This document shows positions 1 through 11,033 of a DNA stretch of 64,000 bases, in pieces; positions within the stretch are counted from its first letter, which is position 1, and every line of letters begins with the position of its first letter. The position numbers were made by a program, and so were the translations under genes. Under the pieces are notes generated by a model that saw only the letters and a list, made by a program, of their open reading frames with translations, had not been told where the DNA came from and did no database searches. Location of the stretch: the NCBI RefSeq assembly GCF_056746865.1, contig NZ_CM163382.1. One strand, given 5' to 3'.

Positions 1-114
1 GCGTATACCGGTCGTGAAGTGCAGGATATTCCCGGTGTGCTGGCCGTGTTTGCTGAACGCCGTAAGGACAGTTTTGGCCCGTATGTCCGGCTGATGAGCG
101 TCACCCTGAACTGA
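1..114 (+). CDS. yeeT: YeeT-like island protein, 3' partial (5' end lies outside the window)
   Basis: Frame open from window start to TGA at 112-114; the translated tail ...AYTGREVQDIPGVLAVFAERRKDSFGPYVRLMSVTLN matches the C-terminus of the complete copy at 29067..29288; lies directly upstream of cbeA as in CP4-44-type islands. Confidence 0.6.
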   Translation, partial: AYTGREVQDIPGVLAVFAERRKDSFGPYVRLMSVTLN

Positions 115-193
115 GTCTGGAAGGGCATTCAGAAGAGCAGAATTATCGCCACCACCGGACCATTCTTAACCAATTTTCTGTGAGGATTTTATC

Positions 194-568
194 GTGCCAG
201 ACACTCTCCCCGGGACAACGCATCCCGACGATAACAACGACCGCCCCTGGTGGGGGCTACCCTGCACCGTGACGCCCTGTTTTGGGGCACGTCTGGTGCA
301 GGAGGGTAACCGGTTGCATTACCTTGCAGACCGCGCCGGTATCAGAGGCCGGTTCAGCGACGCGGATGCGTACCATCTGGACCAGGCCTTTCCGCTGCTG
401 ATGAAACAACTGGAACTCATGCTCACCAGCGGTGAACTGAATCCCCGCCATCAGCATACCGTCACGCTGTATGCAAAAGGGCTGACCTGCAAAGCCGATA
501 CCCTCAGCAGTTGTGGTTACGTTTATATGGCTGTTTATCCGACACTGGCACCCGCAACCACCTCATAA
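194..568 (+). CDS. cbeA: CbeA/YeeU-family antitoxin (cytoskeleton bundling-enhancing factor), GTG start
   Basis: 124-aa ORF; translation (MPDTLPGTTHPDDNNDRPWWGLPCTVTPCFGARLVQEGNRLHYLADRAGIRG...) recognised from memory as YeeU/CbeA; followed by cbtA. Confidence 0.85.
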   Translation: MPDTLPGTTHPDDNNDRPWWGLPCTVTPCFGARLVQEGNRLHYLADRAGIRGRFSDADAYHLDQAFPLLMKQLELMLTSGELNPRHQHTVTLYAKGLTCKADTLSSCGYVYMAVYPTLAPATTS

Positions 569-614
569 CCCCGAATATCTCACCTTTAGCACTACCAGTT
601 ACAGAGAACTTAAG

Positions 615-992
615 ATGAAAACATTACCTGACACACACGTACGGGAGGCATCGCGCTGCCCGTCTCCCGTCACCATCTGGCAGACACTGCTCACCCGACT
701 GTTGGACCAGCATTACGGCCTCACACTGAATGACACACCGTTCGCTGATGAACGTGTGATTGAGCAGCATATTGAGGCAGGCATTTCACTGTGCGATGCG
801 GTGAACTTTCTCGTTGAAAAATACGCACTGGTACGTACCGACCAGCCAGGATTCAGCGCCTGTACCCGTTCTCAGTTAATAAACAGTATTGATATCCTCC
901 GGGCCCGCCGGGCAACCGGCCTGATGGCCCGCGACAATTACAGAACGGTAAATAACATTACCCTGGGTAAACATCCGGGGGCGAAACAATGA
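615..992 (+). CDS. cbtA: CbtA/YeeV-family toxin
   Basis: ATG at 615 inside ORF 513..992; MKTLPDTHVREASRCPSPVTIWQTLLTRLLDQHYGLTLNDTPFADERVIEQHIEAGISLCDAVNFLVEKYALVRTDQPGFS... recognised as CbtA; paired with cbeA; 4-bp overlap with the next ORF. Confidence 0.85.
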   Translation: MKTLPDTHVREASRCPSPVTIWQTLLTRLLDQHYGLTLNDTPFADERVIEQHIEAGISLCDAVNFLVEKYALVRTDQPGFSACTRSQLINSIDILRARRATGLMARDNYRTVNNITLGKHPGAKQ

Positions 993-1480
993 AACTGGCC
1001 CTGACGCTGGAAGCCGACAGCATTAACGTGCAGGCACTGAACATGGGGCGCATTGTCGTTGACGTCGATGGTGTTACTCTCGCTGAACTGATTAACGTGG
1101 TCTGCGATAACGGTTACTCCCTTCGTGTTGTTGATGAATCTGACCGGACATCAGCAGAGCGCACGCCATCATCTGCGGCGGCCCTTACCGGCATACGCTG
1201 CAGTACCGCGCATATCACGGCAAAGGACAACGCCTGGCTGTACTCGCTGTCACATCAGACGAATGGCACCGGCGAATCAGAATGGATTCATTTCACAGGT
1301 AGCGGATATCTGTTACGTACCGATGCGTGGTCATACCCGGTTCTGCGGCTTAAGCGCCTGGGCCTGTCAAAAACGTTCCGTCGTCTGGTTGTCACACTTA
1401 CCCGACGTTATGGCGTCAGTCTCATTCATCTGGATGCCAGCGCTGAATGTCTGCCGGACCTGCCCACTTTCGACTGGTAA
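989..1480 (+). CDS. yeeW: YeeW-like island protein
   Basis: 163-aa ORF translationally coupled to cbtA (ATGA overlap); position and sequence consistent with yeeW of CP4-44. Confidence 0.6.
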   Translation: MKLALTLEADSINVQALNMGRIVVDVDGVTLAELINVVCDNGYSLRVVDESDRTSAERTPSSAAALTGIRCSTAHITAKDNAWLYSLSHQTNGTGESEWIHFTGSGYLLRTDAWSYPVLRLKRLGLSKTFRRLVVTLTRRYGVSLIHLDASAECLPDLPTFDW

Positions 1481-1491
1481 CCAGGAACAAC

Positions 1492-1689
1492 ATGAAATCA
1501 TTAACCACGGAAACCGCACTGGATATTCTGATTGCGTGGCTACAGGACAATATCGACTGCGAATCGGGAATTATCTTTGACAACGATGAGGATAGAACGG
1601 ATTCGGCAGCACTGTTGCCCTGTATCGAACAGGCCAGGGAGGATATCCGTATCCTGCGCCAGTTGCAGCTTCTGCAACAGAACCGGTGA
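1492..1689 (+). CDS. small conserved hypothetical protein downstream of yeeW
   Basis: ATG at 1492 inside ORF 1447..1689 (MKSLTTETALDILIAWLQDNIDCESGIIFDNDED...); the same sequence recurs in the second copy fused in frame to yeeW (30193..30816). Confidence 0.5.
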   Translation: MKSLTTETALDILIAWLQDNIDCESGIIFDNDEDRTDSAALLPCIEQAREDIRILRQLQLLQQNR

Positions 1690-1773
1690 GTCTTACTCAC
1701 CAGACTTCATTCCACTGACGCCAGCCTGAACAGGGCTGGCGTTTTCATTTATCTGCAAAAAGGAATATCGATT

Positions 1774-2640
1774 ATGTCTGAAATCACAGCCCCCCGTCCG
1801 GAAGTGGTCAACGGGCATACGGACGTTATCGGCTCAACCAGCATCCGCCACATTCTGGCTGTACGAAAGAGTGCGCTGCTGCAAATCGACACACTTATCC
1901 GGCAACTGGCAGAAATCTCGGTGCTGACGGAAAGCATCGGAGGTAAAACTGCACTGGACTGGGCCATGAAACAGGATTTTCGCTGCGGTTGCTGGCTGAT
2001 GGAAAAACCGGAAACCGCAATGAAAGCCATCACCCGCAACCTTGACCGCGAAATCTGGCGTGATCTGATGCAACGTTCAGGGATGCTGTCATTAATGGAT
2101 GCACAAGCCCGTGATACATGGTACCGGTCACTGGAGTACGATAATTTTCCGGAAATCAGCGAAGCAAATATCCTGAGCACGTTTGAACAACTGCACCAGA
2201 ACAAAGATGAAGTGTTTGAGCGAGGGGTGCTCAACGTTTTCAGAGGACTGAGCTGGAATTACAAAACCAATTCACCCTGCAAATTTGGCAGTAAAATTAT
2301 CGTCAACAATCTGGTGAGGTGGGACCGGTGGGGGTTTCATCTTATCACCGGACAACAGGCCGATCGACTTGCCGATCTGGAAAGAATGCTGCACCTGTTC
2401 AGCGGCAAACCGATCCCCGACAACCGGGAAAACATCACCATTCATCTGGATGATCACATCCAGTCTGTTCAGGGTAAAGAGGACTATGAAGATGAGATGT
2501 TCAGCATCAGATACTTTAAGAAGGGCTCCGCGCACATCACGTTCAGGAAACCAGAGCTGGTTGACAGGCTTAATGATATTATTGCCAGACACTACCCGGA
2601 AGCCCTGGCAAGCACAGTGAACAAAAGCCGCAAGGCATAA
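1774..2640 (+). CDS. conserved island protein, possibly DUF4942 family
   Basis: 288-aa ORF; a truncated paralog (N-terminal 79 aa) is present at 30916..31155. Confidence 0.55.
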   Translation: MSEITAPRPEVVNGHTDVIGSTSIRHILAVRKSALLQIDTLIRQLAEISVLTESIGGKTALDWAMKQDFRCGCWLMEKPETAMKAITRNLDREIWRDLMQRSGMLSLMDAQARDTWYRSLEYDNFPEISEANILSTFEQLHQNKDEVFERGVLNVFRGLSWNYKTNSPCKFGSKIIVNNLVRWDRWGFHLITGQQADRLADLERMLHLFSGKPIPDNRENITIHLDDHIQSVQGKEDYEDEMFSIRYFKKGSAHITFRKPELVDRLNDIIARHYPEALASTVNKSRKA

Positions 2641-2711
2641 AAGAGGTATTTTACAATTCGCGAATATTAACTATTATTAATTGATAGCAATCAATCGGCG
2701 AGAAAATAACC

Positions 2712-2975
2712 ATGCCTACCAGTGTATCCCTCAGTCCTTACTTTGAAACGTTTATCCGCGAACAAATAGAAAGTGGTCGGTACAACAATACAAGTGAAGT
2801 CATTCGTGCCGGACTTCGTGCTCTGGAAGAACGGGAACAGCAGATAAAGCTTGAATCACTCCAGAGCGCCGTGGCCGCAGGCATCAACAGCGGTGAAAGT
2901 AAAAGTGCTGAAGAGGTATTCGGGCGACTGACGCACAAATACAAAAAGATGGCAGAAGGTGAACAGCCAATATGA
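2712..2975 (+). CDS. parD: type II antitoxin, ParD/RHH family
   Basis: 87-aa ORF (…FETFIREQIESGRYNNTSEVIRAGLRALEERE…) typical of ParD antitoxins; 4-bp ATGA overlap with the following toxin ORF. Confidence 0.75.
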   Translation: MPTSVSLSPYFETFIREQIESGRYNNTSEVIRAGLRALEEREQQIKLESLQSAVAAGINSGESKSAEEVFGRLTHKYKKMAEGEQPI

Positions 2976-3298
2976 AACTGACTGTTTCACCATTAGCAGA
3001 ACACGATCTTGAAGCTATAGGTGACTGGATCGCTCAGGATAATCCTGTCCGTGCAATCAGTTTTACCGAAGAGCTTTACCAACAATGTCTGTTGATAGCC
3101 GAATCGCCAGTACTCTACAGAGAAAGACCCGAGTTAGGGGCTGGGATCAGAGGTTGTTCGTATGGTCGTTACCTTCTGCTGTTCAGGGTACTGGATACTG
3201 AAGTTCGTATCGAACGTATCGTTCATGGTTCCCGGGATATCAACAGGGTACTTGCAGAGCCAGACGACAAACCATCAGATCATTTCTGGCAGCCATAA
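2972..3298 (+). CDS. parE: type II toxin, ParE/RelE family
   Basis: 108-aa ORF coupled to the preceding RHH antitoxin; size and C-terminal region fit ParE/RelE. Confidence 0.7.
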   Translation: MKLTVSPLAEHDLEAIGDWIAQDNPVRAISFTEELYQQCLLIAESPVLYRERPELGAGIRGCSYGRYLLLFRVLDTEVRIERIVHGSRDINRVLAEPDDKPSDHFWQP

Positions 3299-3545
3299 AC
3301 AAAATCTGTGCGTTAACGCTCCCTAACACAGGTAGCCAGGTATTTTATAAATCTCTGTATTTTGTTGTCACTTCGATTCCGCGATTCAGCATATCGAACC
3401 AGACAAAATGATTACAACAAACCACAAGAAAGAGGGATTATAGCGTCAAAAGAATTCGAATTGCACATGGGGGCCTCATTGGTGGCCTCAAAAAGAACAA
3501 GGATAAAACAGTCGATACAAAACAATTGGTTATATAACCAGTTTC

Positions 3546-3564
3546 ATTCCGAGTCCGGGCACCA
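3546..3564 (+). repeat. 19-bp copy of the tRNA-Phe 3' end (ATTCCGAGTCCGGGCACCA): island att direct repeat, not a complete tRNA
   Basis: Exact match to the 3' terminal 19 nt of E. coli tRNA-Phe including CCA; upstream sequence does not match the rest of the tRNA; integrase gene begins about 200 bp downstream. Confidence 0.7.
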
Positions 3565-3576
3565 AATTCATATAAA

Positions 3577-3603
3577 CGGACCTCCACGGAGGTCCGTTTT
3601 TCG
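3577..3603 (+). terminator. rho-independent terminator-like hairpin after the tRNA-Phe repeat
   Basis: CGGACCTCC-ACGG-AGGTCCG stem-loop followed by a T-run. Confidence 0.5.
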
Positions 3604-3761
3604 TTTCAGGACGCCACGATTTAAGTGTCCTGCCGCCAAATCAATTCTACCGAACTCAACCAGACTCCCCCCACATCAACCCCATTGTGTGGGTATAATT
3701 GCGGGTATACCCCAGTTCGACAGAATTTGTACCCTCTTTAACGCATTCAGAAGGCTGAACT

Positions 3762-5027
3762 ATGGCACTGACTGACGCAAAAATCCGGGCTGCAAAGCAC
3801 ACTGACAAGGCTTATAAACTCACTGACGGGGCTGGCATGTTCCTGCTGGTACATCCTAATGGTTCCCGTTACTGGCGTCTCCGTTATCGCATTCTGGGTA
3901 AGGAGAAAACTCTGGCACTTGGTGTATACCCGGAGGTTTCTCTCTCCGAAGCTCGTACAAAACGGGATGAGGCCCGAAAACTGATTTCGGAGGGGATTGA
4001 CCCTTGCGAACAGAAAAGAGCTAAAAAAGTAGTCCCTGATTTACAACTCTCTTTTGAACATATCGCACGACGCTGGCATGCCAGTAATAAACAATGGGCA
4101 CAATCACACAGCGATAAGGTACTCAAAAGCCTCGAAACACACGTTTTCCCCTTTATCGGCAACCGGAACATCACAACACTCAATACCCCGGACCTGCTTA
4201 TCCCTGTTCGTGCTGCAGAAGCTAAACAAATTTATGAAATCGCCAGTCGTCTGCAGCAAAGAATATCTGCTGTAATGCGTTATGCCGTACAGTCTGGCAT
4301 CATCAGATATAATCCTGCTCTGGATATGGCTGGCGCATTGACCTCTGTAAAACGACAGCATCGCCCCGCTCTTGATCTTTCACGTCTGCCTGAACTTCTG
4401 TCGCGTATTAACAGTTATAAAGGTCAGCCTGTCACCCGGCTTGCTGTTATGCTGAATTTACTGGTTTTTATTCGCTCCAGTGAACTCAGATATGCCCGCT
4501 GGGCTGAAATTGATATTGACAATTCAATGTGGACTATTCCAGCCGAACGCAAACCTCTGCCAGGGGTAAAATTCTCACACCGGGGCTCCAAGATGCGAAC
4601 ACCACATCTTGTGCCACTCAGCAAACAGGCTGTAGCCATACTGACAGAACTTCAGACATGGGCTGGTGAAAATGGTCTGATCTTTACGGGAGCACATGAC
4701 CCGCGTAAACCAATCAGTGAAAATACCGTAAATAAGGCCCTCAGAGTGATGGGGTATGACACAACCAAGGAAGTCTGTGGCCATGGATTCCGGGCGATGG
4801 CGTGCAGTGCATTGATTGAATCCGGCTTATGGTCAAGAGATGCGGTTGAACGTCAGATGAGTCATCAGGAGCGCAACGGAGTACGTGCCGCGTATATTCA
4901 TAAAGCAGAACATCTGGAAGAACGTCGGCTTATGCTGCAATGGTGGGCAGATTTTCTGGATGCAAACAGGGAGGAGTGTATCAGTCCGTTTGAATATGCA
5001 AAAGTTAACAATCCACTGAAAAGGTGA
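3762..5027 (+). CDS. int: tyrosine recombinase / P4-type phage integrase
   Basis: 421-aa ORF; N-terminus MALTDAKIRAAKHTDKAYKLTDGAGMFLLVHPNGSRYWRLRYR... is the characteristic P4-integrase N-terminal domain; C-terminal catalytic region present (…HGFRAMA…); lies next to the tRNA-Phe att repeat. Confidence 0.9.
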   Translation: MALTDAKIRAAKHTDKAYKLTDGAGMFLLVHPNGSRYWRLRYRILGKEKTLALGVYPEVSLSEARTKRDEARKLISEGIDPCEQKRAKKVVPDLQLSFEHIARRWHASNKQWAQSHSDKVLKSLETHVFPFIGNRNITTLNTPDLLIPVRAAEAKQIYEIASRLQQRISAVMRYAVQSGIIRYNPALDMAGALTSVKRQHRPALDLSRLPELLSRINSYKGQPVTRLAVMLNLLVFIRSSELRYARWAEIDIDNSMWTIPAERKPLPGVKFSHRGSKMRTPHLVPLSKQAVAILTELQTWAGENGLIFTGAHDPRKPISENTVNKALRVMGYDTTKEVCGHGFRAMACSALIESGLWSRDAVERQMSHQERNGVRAAYIHKAEHLEERRLMLQWWADFLDANREECISPFEYAKVNNPLKR

Positions 5028-6326: not shown

Positions 6327-6695
6327 ATATTGCATTAGTGTATCCTGCACACAAGTAATAATTTATCCACCAATAATAACACTGTTAATGTCCCCTTCCC
6401 CTGGTTGTCAGCCAGGGGTTATCTTCTGAATATTTCTTTTGAAAAGGATAACACAGTAAATTATTTTTATGAATTATCCCATGGGCTCATTAACACCCTT
6501 TCATAATGCTTTATTGTCAAATACGTTATGGCTGACATCAAAAAAACCGGATTTCCTCTGCCAGCGGGTAATCACCTCCCCGGTGTTTTCGGTTGGTCTG
6601 GTTACTCCTGTCTGGTTATTAGCAAGATAATTGCTATAAACAGTGGAAAACTCATCGTACATAATCTGGTGATGAACATTACGCTTATTTTCCCT

Positions 6696-6779
6696 TAGAC
6701 TGGCCCCCTGAATCTCCAGACAACCAGTATCACTTAAATAAGTGATACTGGTTGTCTGGAGATTCAGGGGGCCAGTCTA
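6696..6779. repeat. 84-bp perfect palindrome (two 41-bp arms)
   Basis: TAGACTGGCCCCCTGAATCTCCAGACAACCAGTATCACTTAA|ATAAGTGATACTGGTTGTCTGGAGATTCAGGGGGCCAGTCTA reads identically on both strands; abuts the stop of the truncated transposase fragment. Confidence 0.6.
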
Positions 6780-7013
6780 CTGAGCTCTTTCAGTGATATT
6801 TTCTTTGTGAGGAGCCATGATTTTATTAGCAGAGACTTTATCGTTTGAAAAACAACTATAAGCTGCCTTTGTTTCACTCCAGGTACGGCAGGAAACAGGA
6901 ATACTTTCTTCTGGTGAACGACTGAGGCTATTGAGGATATGTTTTACTCTTTTATCAAGTCTTGAGTCCCCTATATCCAGTGATTTTAGCTCCTGAATAA
7001 CCCAGTTTTCCAT
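6777..7013 (-). pseudogene. IS4-family (Tn5/IS50-like) transposase, N-terminal fragment only
   Basis: 78-aa ORF; …DIGDSRLDKRVKHILNSLSRSPEESIPVSCRTWSETKAAYSCFSNDKVSANKIMAP… aligns in pattern with the N-terminal DNA-binding region of Tn5 transposase; a full transposase would be about 450 aa. Confidence 0.55.
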
Positions 7014-7349
7014 AACACCTCTGAAATAATCTCTGTCTTTTCAATATAATACTATTATTTCAACTTGTGGGTAAGGGTATGAGATGCGAAGTGATGATCG
7101 ATAGTGATGCGAATAAGTGTTCGATTCAGATGCGATTATGCAATATGATTTTATGTGTGTTGCTTAATTATCATATTTCTTGCCCGTTCCCCGCCGCGCA
7201 GATCCGGTTTCCGGCTGAAGTGGATACAGACCTGATTTGTTGCTGAGTATCGGTAAAAGTGCGGCTTATAAGCTATTCTGAAACATGGCAAGTGAATCTG
7301 GGCGGTATAATTCCGGCAAATGTCATCTGTATTTAAAGGACGTGTGAGT

Positions 7350-7802
7350 ATGAAATTTCTGGAATGTGCTGTCCGGGATGTGATTTATGGGACCAATGTC
7401 CGTATTGTCAAACCGGTCAACATTTATGAATGTGAACTCAGGGACAACGTGTTTGTCGGCCCCTTCGTTGAGATACAGAAAGGCTGTGTCATTGGTAGTG
7501 GAAGTCGAATACAGTCGCATACGTTTATTTGTGAGAACGTAACACTGGGAGAGAACTGCTTCATTGGTCATAACGTGACGTTCGCCAACGATCTGTTTCG
7601 TTCAGGAGCACCAGATCCGTCACCGGATAACTGGATCAGCATTATCCTGGGGGATTCGGTTACTGTTGGCAGTGGAGCCATTATTCTGTCTCCGTATATA
7701 TGCAGCGGAGCTGTTATCGGTGCGGGGGCTGTTGTAGTAAAACCGATTGAGAACAAAGGCATTTATGCAGGAAACCCGGCAAGACTGATCAGAATATTAT
7801 GA
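7350..7802 (+). CDS. hexapeptide-repeat (left-handed beta-helix) acyl/acetyltransferase
   Basis: ATG at 7350 in ORF 7320..7802; repeated [LIV]-G-x-x-x-x-I hexapeptide pattern (…VIGSGSRI…VTLGENCFIGHNVTF…ILGDSVTVGSGAIIL…VIGAGAVVV…). Confidence 0.7.
   Translation: MKFLECAVRDVIYGTNVRIVKPVNIYECELRDNVFVGPFVEIQKGCVIGSGSRIQSHTFICENVTLGENCFIGHNVTFANDLFRSGAPDPSPDNWISIILGDSVTVGSGAIILSPYICSGAVIGAGAVVVKPIENKGIYAGNPARLIRIL

Positions 7803-8966: not shown

Positions 8967-11033
<2,067 letters not shown>

Follow-up and report, generated by a model that had tools for sequence, protein, structure and literature searches.

How a perfect palindrome of 84 bp came to lie in a genomic island, at the very base where a transposase-like gene breaks off, is the question raised by the 64,000 nucleotides of DNA analysed here (NCBI RefSeq assembly GCF_056746865.1, contig NZ_CM163382.1; hereafter the window). 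An examination of the letters alone, hereafter the sequence-only reading, had reported the palindrome and offered three origins for it: a tail-to-tail junction of two terminal repeats from another element, a hairpin-forming insertion, or a deletion scar. A repeat search bore out the structure, which occupies positions 6696-6779: the two arms, 6696-6736 and 6739-6779, are 41 nt each, 100% complementary and 2 nt apart, with AA at the centre. Apart from these two arms, no copy of an arm was found in the 64-kb window with up to 3 mismatches allowed (0/100 shuffles). Folding of the palindrome as single-stranded DNA gives a single 40-bp hairpin with an energy of -50.3 kcal/mol, where shuffled sequences average -9.1 (z = -17.9). 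A consensus scan detected no promoter-like or terminator-like site within it.

The abutment of the gene fragment on the palindrome, also pointed out in the sequence-only reading, is exact: the stop codon of the fragment, TAG at 6777-6779, is what the last three bases of the palindrome spell on the minus strand. The fragment matches the Pfam family Tnp_DNA_bind (PF14706), the Tn5-type N-terminal DNA-binding domain, over residues 3-60 (E = 1.3e-19); the DDE catalytic domain is absent, the ORF being cut at codon 78. The sequence-only reading had suggested looking for the rest of the transposase elsewhere; a longer homologue of 308 aa was found in E. coli O104:H4. The fragment is identical to the first 78 residues of this protein at 77 of 78 positions, and in the 308-aa homologue, too, Pfam recognizes the DNA-binding domain only.

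The arms were identified by comparison with IS2. The left arm is 100% identical to the left end of IS2 in UMNK88, and the identity extends beyond the arm: palindrome bases 1-52 match IS2 nt 1-52 at 100% in UMNK88 and at 98% in a K-12-type copy. Bases 1-52 also match tens of thousands of places, at 98-100% identity, in 4,499 of the 5,426 complete E. coli genomes, and in the two copies examined a CDS with the annotation "IS3-like element IS2 family transposase" follows 40 bp downstream of the match. Read from genomic copies, the IS2 left end (IRL) is TAGACTGGCCCCCTGAATCTCCAGACAACCA[G/A]TATCACTTAAATAAGTGATAGTC..., and the identity of the palindrome to it starts at the very tip, TAGACTGG. The right arm is a second IRL in inverted orientation; the IS2 right end (IRR) was considered for this arm and rejected, its sequence being different. 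In every IS2, nt 33-52 form a perfect 20-bp palindrome, and this 20-mer is the centre of the 84-bp palindrome. There is no complete IS2 here, since neither an IRL/IRR pair nor a transposase ORF between the arms is present, and the 64-kb window contains no other IS2 end. What native IS2 has beyond nt 52, including the rest of its left-end promoter region, is replaced in the palindrome. IS2 residues 39-48 are reported to include the sequence bound by OrfA, a repressor (PMC3299598); the 20-mer overlaps these residues, and the palindrome centre has kept them. The features at and around the palindrome are as follows.

6685-6695, minus strand: remnant of the ept gene, of which only the stop codon and the 8 coding nt before it are left, all else being deleted.
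6696-6779, no strand: the 84-bp palindrome, made of IS2 IRL (nt 1-41), AA and inverted IS2 IRL (nt 41-1).
6696-6736, plus strand: left arm, IS2 IRL nt 1-41, with its tip TAGACTGG at 6696 and the G variant at IS2 position 32.
6739-6779, minus strand: right arm, the second IS2 IRL, inverted, with its tip at 6779.
6728-6747, no strand: native IS2 20-mer TATCACTTA-AA-TAAGTGATA (IS2 nt 33-52), the proposed crossover site.
6777-7013, minus strand: 78-codon N-terminal fragment of an IS4/Tn5-family transposase-like gene, its stop supplied by the IS2 tip.

The flanks of the palindrome are not neighbours in related genomes. In strain 2016C-3878 the island follows a tRNA-Phe gene (pheV, adjoining yqgA) and a P4-type integrase, and in M160133 the left flank runs straight into an intact ept gene of 500 aa (3346-4848 of record L006, minus strand), the product of which has the Pfam domains Sulfatase and EptA_B_N (phosphoethanolamine transferase). 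Homology of the window to this intact ept island ends between 6695 and 6696: the sequence ...TTTTCCCT goes on into ept in M160133, and the left palindrome junction of the window reads ...TTATTTTCCCT/TAGACTGG..., the slash marking the junction. On the right, homology ends between 6779 and 6780, and CTGAGCTC, which begins at this point, is preceded in O104:H4 by more of the IS4-like gene, which there is 308 codons long and extends in the direction of shiF and the aerobactin operon. Among the complete E. coli genomes searched, the left flank is present in 1,646 and the right flank in 98. The 5 bp flanking the palindrome differ, TCCCT on one side and CTGAG on the other, and thus do not form the 5-bp target duplication that borders genuine IS2 copies (CCTTG, GCTGC, ATGGC). 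Since its edges are exact IS2 tips, its flanks are non-neighbours and the flanking 5 bp differ, the window palindrome is a deletion junction and not a simple insertion; the lack of a 5-bp duplication is what is expected from two separate insertions. Two of the origins offered on the letters alone are therefore correct at once: the terminal repeats joined tail to tail are two IS2 IRLs, and the non-contiguous flanks are those of a deletion scar.

The same 84 bp occurs at two further, unrelated loci with differing flanks, one on Shigella plasmids and the other on an IMG/VR contig (L011). On the contig, the palindrome lies between a Dam-like methylase ORF and the tail of an IS21 istB gene, by a P4-type integrase remnant, and has no target duplication; no placement of this locus was found in complete E. 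coli genomes. The variant at IS2 position 32 is alike in both arms at each locus, G/G in the window and in Shigella and A/A on the contig. That the arms might be the ordinary terminal repeats of a known IS, in a common form of junction, had been named as what would refute the sequence-only reading; the arms are indeed such repeats, but the IRL-IRL junction is rare and is found at three loci.

The Shigella locus reveals how the palindrome arose there. In virulence plasmids of Shigella dysenteriae it lies between ospB and icsP, and the palindrome form is present in 5 plasmids. In NZ_CP026809, the palindrome is followed on its right by IS2 nt 533-1331, and the GCTGC found to the left of the palindrome recurs directly after the IRR of that IS2 copy. 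Because GCTGC stands on both sides, a single original insertion supplied both the left arm, as its one end, and the IS2 remainder, as its other. An intact IS2 with the duplication GCTGC sits at exactly this site in 19 plasmids of S. boydii, S. dysenteriae and S. flexneri. The intermediate predicted between the two forms carries a second IS2, inverted, at 537/533, and was sought with a query in which IS2[388-537] was joined to the inverted IRR tip. This nested junction was matched in 3 S. dysenteriae plasmids, 100% identical and contiguous over 300 nt. The order in ATCC 49347 is GCTGC, B[1-537], a complete inverted IS2, B[533-1331], GCTGC, and the nested inverted copy has a duplication of its own, ATGGC. 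In the nested form, one TAAGTGATA lies 44 nt from the left tip and the second copy stops 32 nt short of the inverted tip. When the 1,784 bp between these copies are removed in silico, 84 bp identical to window 6696-6779 are left, and the simulated product equals a real palindrome plasmid over 2,500 bp save 4 SNPs. The Shigella locus thus records every stage: intact IS2, nested inverted pair, palindrome. The hairpin-forming insertion, the remaining origin offered on the letters alone, fails on these data, since there is no target duplication and the Shigella left arm is the resident IS2's own end. Some Shigella copies of the palindrome have lost one C from a C5 run. In the plasmid of S. dysenteriae ATCC 49346 (L013, 4001-4083), it is the left-arm C5 run that is short of one C, which leaves an imperfect palindrome of 83 bp and represents early decay. 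The ospB-icsP locus also holds, about 230 bp downstream of the resident IS2, a diverged IS2-like fragment that is 91% identical to IS2 nt 936-1331 (L012, 5110-5497).

The explanation that I favour for the window, at a probability of roughly 0.8, is that the palindrome is the scar of two inverted IS2 copies, IRLs outward, that collapsed by deletion between their TAAGTGATA 9-mers. One IS2 would have inserted at the 3' end of ept with its IRL toward the TPR gene, and a second, inverted, inside the IS4/Tn5-like transposase gene. As the 20-mer is self-complementary, TAAGTGATA is found in the same direction toward the outer end of both inverted copies, as a direct repeat, and the inverted pair would have brought the two repeats together at the base of a hairpin. 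Copy choice or annealing between them would then have deleted both IS2 bodies together with the DNA between, leaving IRL(1-41)-AA-IRL'(41-1) as the product. One trait to be expected of a remnant of this kind is present: short direct repeats located inside inverted repeats, near their outer ends, with one copy kept. The deletion step was probably replication slippage (copy choice) across the hairpin; annealing after breakage, as by SbcCD cleavage, or a strand switch linked to IEE or transposase, is possible instead. The identity of the arms, the exact junctions at the tips, the separate flanks, the recurrence at other loci and the complete series in Shigella are direct observations; the inverted-pair stage at the window locus I infer by analogy with Shigella, and the enzymology of the deletion I infer as well.

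Chimeric queries joining each flank to IS2 detected a full IS2 at either window junction in 0 of 5,426 E. coli genomes; their near matches (for instance L009) were discarded, being IS2 copies at other nearby positions or chance similarities to the flank. The spacing between the two presumed window copies may have been many kb, which counts against the collapse of an inverted pair; slippage over long distances is inefficient. The absence of the IS4-like module from M160133, the closest intact pheV island, also counts against it. In favour of the collapse, a full IS2 in the same orientation as the left arm is present near the ept 3' end in sister islands at selC, pheU and leuX. These copies are independent insertions (L007, FORC_031, selC; L008, MS 69-1, pheU; L003, HT-947, leuX); the distance of each to the ept 3' end is no more than a few hundred bp, the IRL points to the TPR gene in all of them, and their clustering may reflect a regional insertion preference.

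Several other routes to the same 84 bp have to be weighed. That one IS2 at the ept site suffered a nested self-insertion, and that a separate deletion then ran up to the IS4-like gene, is a route documented in Shigella and helped by the frequency of IS2 insertions at the ept 3' end in sister islands. It is nevertheless improbable for the window, as the endpoint of the second deletion must hit the inverted IRL tip exactly, which no mechanism favours, and as more steps are needed than with two independent insertions and one collapse. The centring of the palindrome exactly on the native 20-mer, and the common position-32 variant of the two arms at all three loci, would also follow if snap-back or template switching at the native 20-bp palindrome had given a single IS2 end an inverted duplicate, without a second IS2. 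Copying of this sort would, however, extend into inverted flank, whereas the right arm ends exactly at the IS2 tip, where there is no microhomology (...GTCTA/CTGAG in the window, ...GTCTA/ATGGC in Shigella); given also that the flanks are not mirror images and that a two-copy intermediate exists at the Shigella site, this route is quite improbable.

A further alternative is that the 84 bp are a MITE-like, non-autonomous unit of two IS2 ends, mobilised in trans by the IS2 transposase. Like MITEs, the palindrome is short, non-coding and hairpin-forming, with perfect terminal inverted repeats derived from an IS, and it occurs at three unrelated loci. Unlike them, it has a target duplication at 0 of the 3 loci and gives no sign of movement, and its ends are predicted to be donor-incompetent. 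Moreover, the window flanks are non-contiguous in relatives, the Shigella left arm is the resident IS2's own IRL and has the GCTGC duplication in common with the distant IRR, and all 46 of the 46 E. coli copies are at one locus. Finally, two IS2 left ends, both of them recipient-only, are reported to be unable to form circles (minicircles), for which reason the scar is predicted to be immobile. A mobile unit is therefore very unlikely. As for an error of assembly or sequencing, chimeric reads can yield palindromes, but the identity of the palindrome in 46 complete genomes, assembled independently by many laboratories and from many hosts, and in a short-read metagenome contig makes this scarcely credible.

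The collapse of an inverted IS2 pair, which remains the preferred explanation, has a counterpart within single copies, because IS2 carries TAAGTGATA at nt 44 and again at nt 1292. Deletion between these copies was predicted to leave an IRL-IRR remnant of 83 bp. Exactly this sequence, IS2[1-52]+[1301-1331], is present as 83 bp in E. coli MB20 (L017, 1501-1583) and NH-21 (L016, 1501-1583); the MB20 remnant is flanked by a 5-bp duplication, GTGGT, and the NH-21 remnant is not (CTTAT/ATAAT). These remnants could be collapsed insertions or true MITE-like units, and their likeness to MITEs is greater than that of the 84-bp palindrome. Full inverted IS2 pairs that are still intact were seen in a plasmid of S. 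dysenteriae ATCC 12039 (L014, 2722-5812) and in E. coli EC261 (L018). In both, the IRL tips face each other, at most 430 bp apart, and the pairs were rejected as precursors on account of this opposite orientation. Their survival would be understandable if a small viable palindrome could arise only from pairs whose IRLs point outward.

In complete E. coli genomes, all 46 of the full-length palindromes found in one piece (46/46) belong to one locus and are 100% identical, and their hosts were humans, poultry, cattle, swine, pets and one monkey. A scan of metagenomes returned the window locus only, in a short-read contig (L015) with 100% identity; in this contig the region, whose collapse in short-read assemblies the sequence-only reading had proposed to check, is intact. 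The diagnostic centre gave 0 matches in other species, one genome per species being scanned. In E. coli LST200A (NZ_CP110858.1, record 934807-936684), the match to the 1.1-kb palindrome locus falls into 2 pieces that together extend over 1,878 bp, owing to an extra IS1A within the locus. The palindrome can also be lost, between two copies of a short repeat that lie on either side of it:

6616-6624, plus strand: left copy of the 9-bp direct repeat TTATTAGCA, bounding a secondary deletion of 207 bp.
6823-6831, plus strand: right copy of the same 9-bp direct repeat TTATTAGCA, bounding the same deletion.

In CU532-9, MS1494 and GN02350, the palindrome is gone through an identical 207-bp deletion between these repeats, which took away the palindrome together with 71 bp of the flank on its left and 52 bp of that on its right; the junction obtained by simulating this deletion was matched exactly in L005. 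As the three genomes have an additional 1-nt indel in common, the deletion was probably one event. The sequence-only reading had taken the palindrome for a likely recombination hotspot. The 207-bp deletion and the 1-nt loss in Shigella lend this modest support, but the 46 intact genomes speak against it; the site is modestly deletion-prone and not highly unstable.

The proposed collapse resembles nearly precise excision of the Tn10/Tn5 type, in which an inverted IS pair collapses between short direct repeats located inside the inverted repeats, leaving a short palindromic remnant at the site; the Tn10 remnant of Foster et al. in 1981 was reportedly about 50 bp, between 24-bp repeats. It differs from Tn10 excision in that IS2 is an IS3-family, copy-out-paste-in element, that the remnant is a perfect palindrome of 84 bp and that the 'direct repeat' of IS2 exists only by virtue of the self-complementary, operator-like 20-mer. 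Unlike with Tn10, too, the window copies would have been separate insertions, so that host DNA was lost and no target duplication was left. PMC12524634, citing d'Alencon et al., presents nearly precise excision of a Tn10-related transposon as copy choice between short direct repeats, aided by a hairpin formed from the flanking inverted repeats. In IEE, the loss of an IS3-family element comes about by switching from one short homology to another near or within the IS (10.1101/2023.06.07.543989); such events need transposase and typically involve flanking microhomologies of 2-6 bp, in contrast to the fixed 9-mer inside the IS2 ends. Engineered chromosomal palindromes that serve as SbcCD substrates in E. 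coli (PMC3315005) are likewise perfect or near-perfect, able to form hairpins at replication and prone to provoke rearrangement; the window palindrome, unlike them, is natural, much shorter and tolerated, being unchanged in 46 genomes. Compared with a native IS2 IRL, the arms are 100% identical over nt 1-41, but they have no transposase gene and no IRR partner.

No earlier description of IS2-derived palindromic remnants or of IS2 MITEs was found in the searchable literature. The palindrome is ordinary in kind, an IS scar, and its route of formation is unusually well documented: a striking sequence feature is explained as the by-product of a very common insertion sequence, and one site holds a rare natural record of an intact IS, a nested inverted pair, a palindromic scar and its decay. 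In the window, the palindrome marks a place of DNA loss from a genomic island, and the form IRL-AA-IRL' offers a simple signature for past collapses of IS2 pairs. It also illustrates that a widespread E. coli lineage can keep a perfect palindrome of 84 bp without change. No new system or function is revealed, and there is no evidence that the scar does anything beyond truncating an already decayed gene. A bolder proposal would make of the left-end 20-mer a built-in self-destruct of IS2, which routinely erases IRL-outward inverted pairs along with the DNA trapped between them, here possibly a SHI-2-type aerobactin module; the perfect palindromes left over would remain targets of OrfA or transposase binding and could serve as orphan recipient ends or as fragile sites that keep island remodelling going. 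I regard this as unlikely.

The DNA deleted at the window palindrome may have included a SHI-2-type aerobactin module. In SHI-2-type islands the IS4-like gene directly adjoins shiF and iucABCD-iutA, and no iuc genes were found in the present island within the 48 kb examined (L025). Window 6780-7473, an IS4-like/acetyltransferase module, is common to SHI-2-type aerobactin islands (O104:H4, NC_018658.1; L024, record 4756645-4766799).

The wider surroundings of the locus hold two further peculiarities. Within window 1-3564, the left edge of the island consists of only the 19-nt 3' end of tRNA-Phe (3546-3564), ARAGORN detecting no tRNA anywhere in the 64-kb window; 2016C-3878 differs from the window in having a complete tRNA-Phe directly before the integrase. 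Upstream of the tRNA-Phe remnant lies the tail of another integrated element, with a ParD/ParE toxin-antitoxin and DUF4942, and the remnant and this tail together indicate that two islands stand in tandem in the window. Downstream of the palindrome, window 9404-10661 is an IS3-family element of 1,258 bp, bounded by TGTAGTG...CACTACA and with a duplication of 3 bp (CCC); its ORFs at 9440-9787 and 9607-10653 are OrfA/OrfB-like. As it is absent from the otherwise identical loci L015, L005, L022 and L023, this element is a recent insertion.
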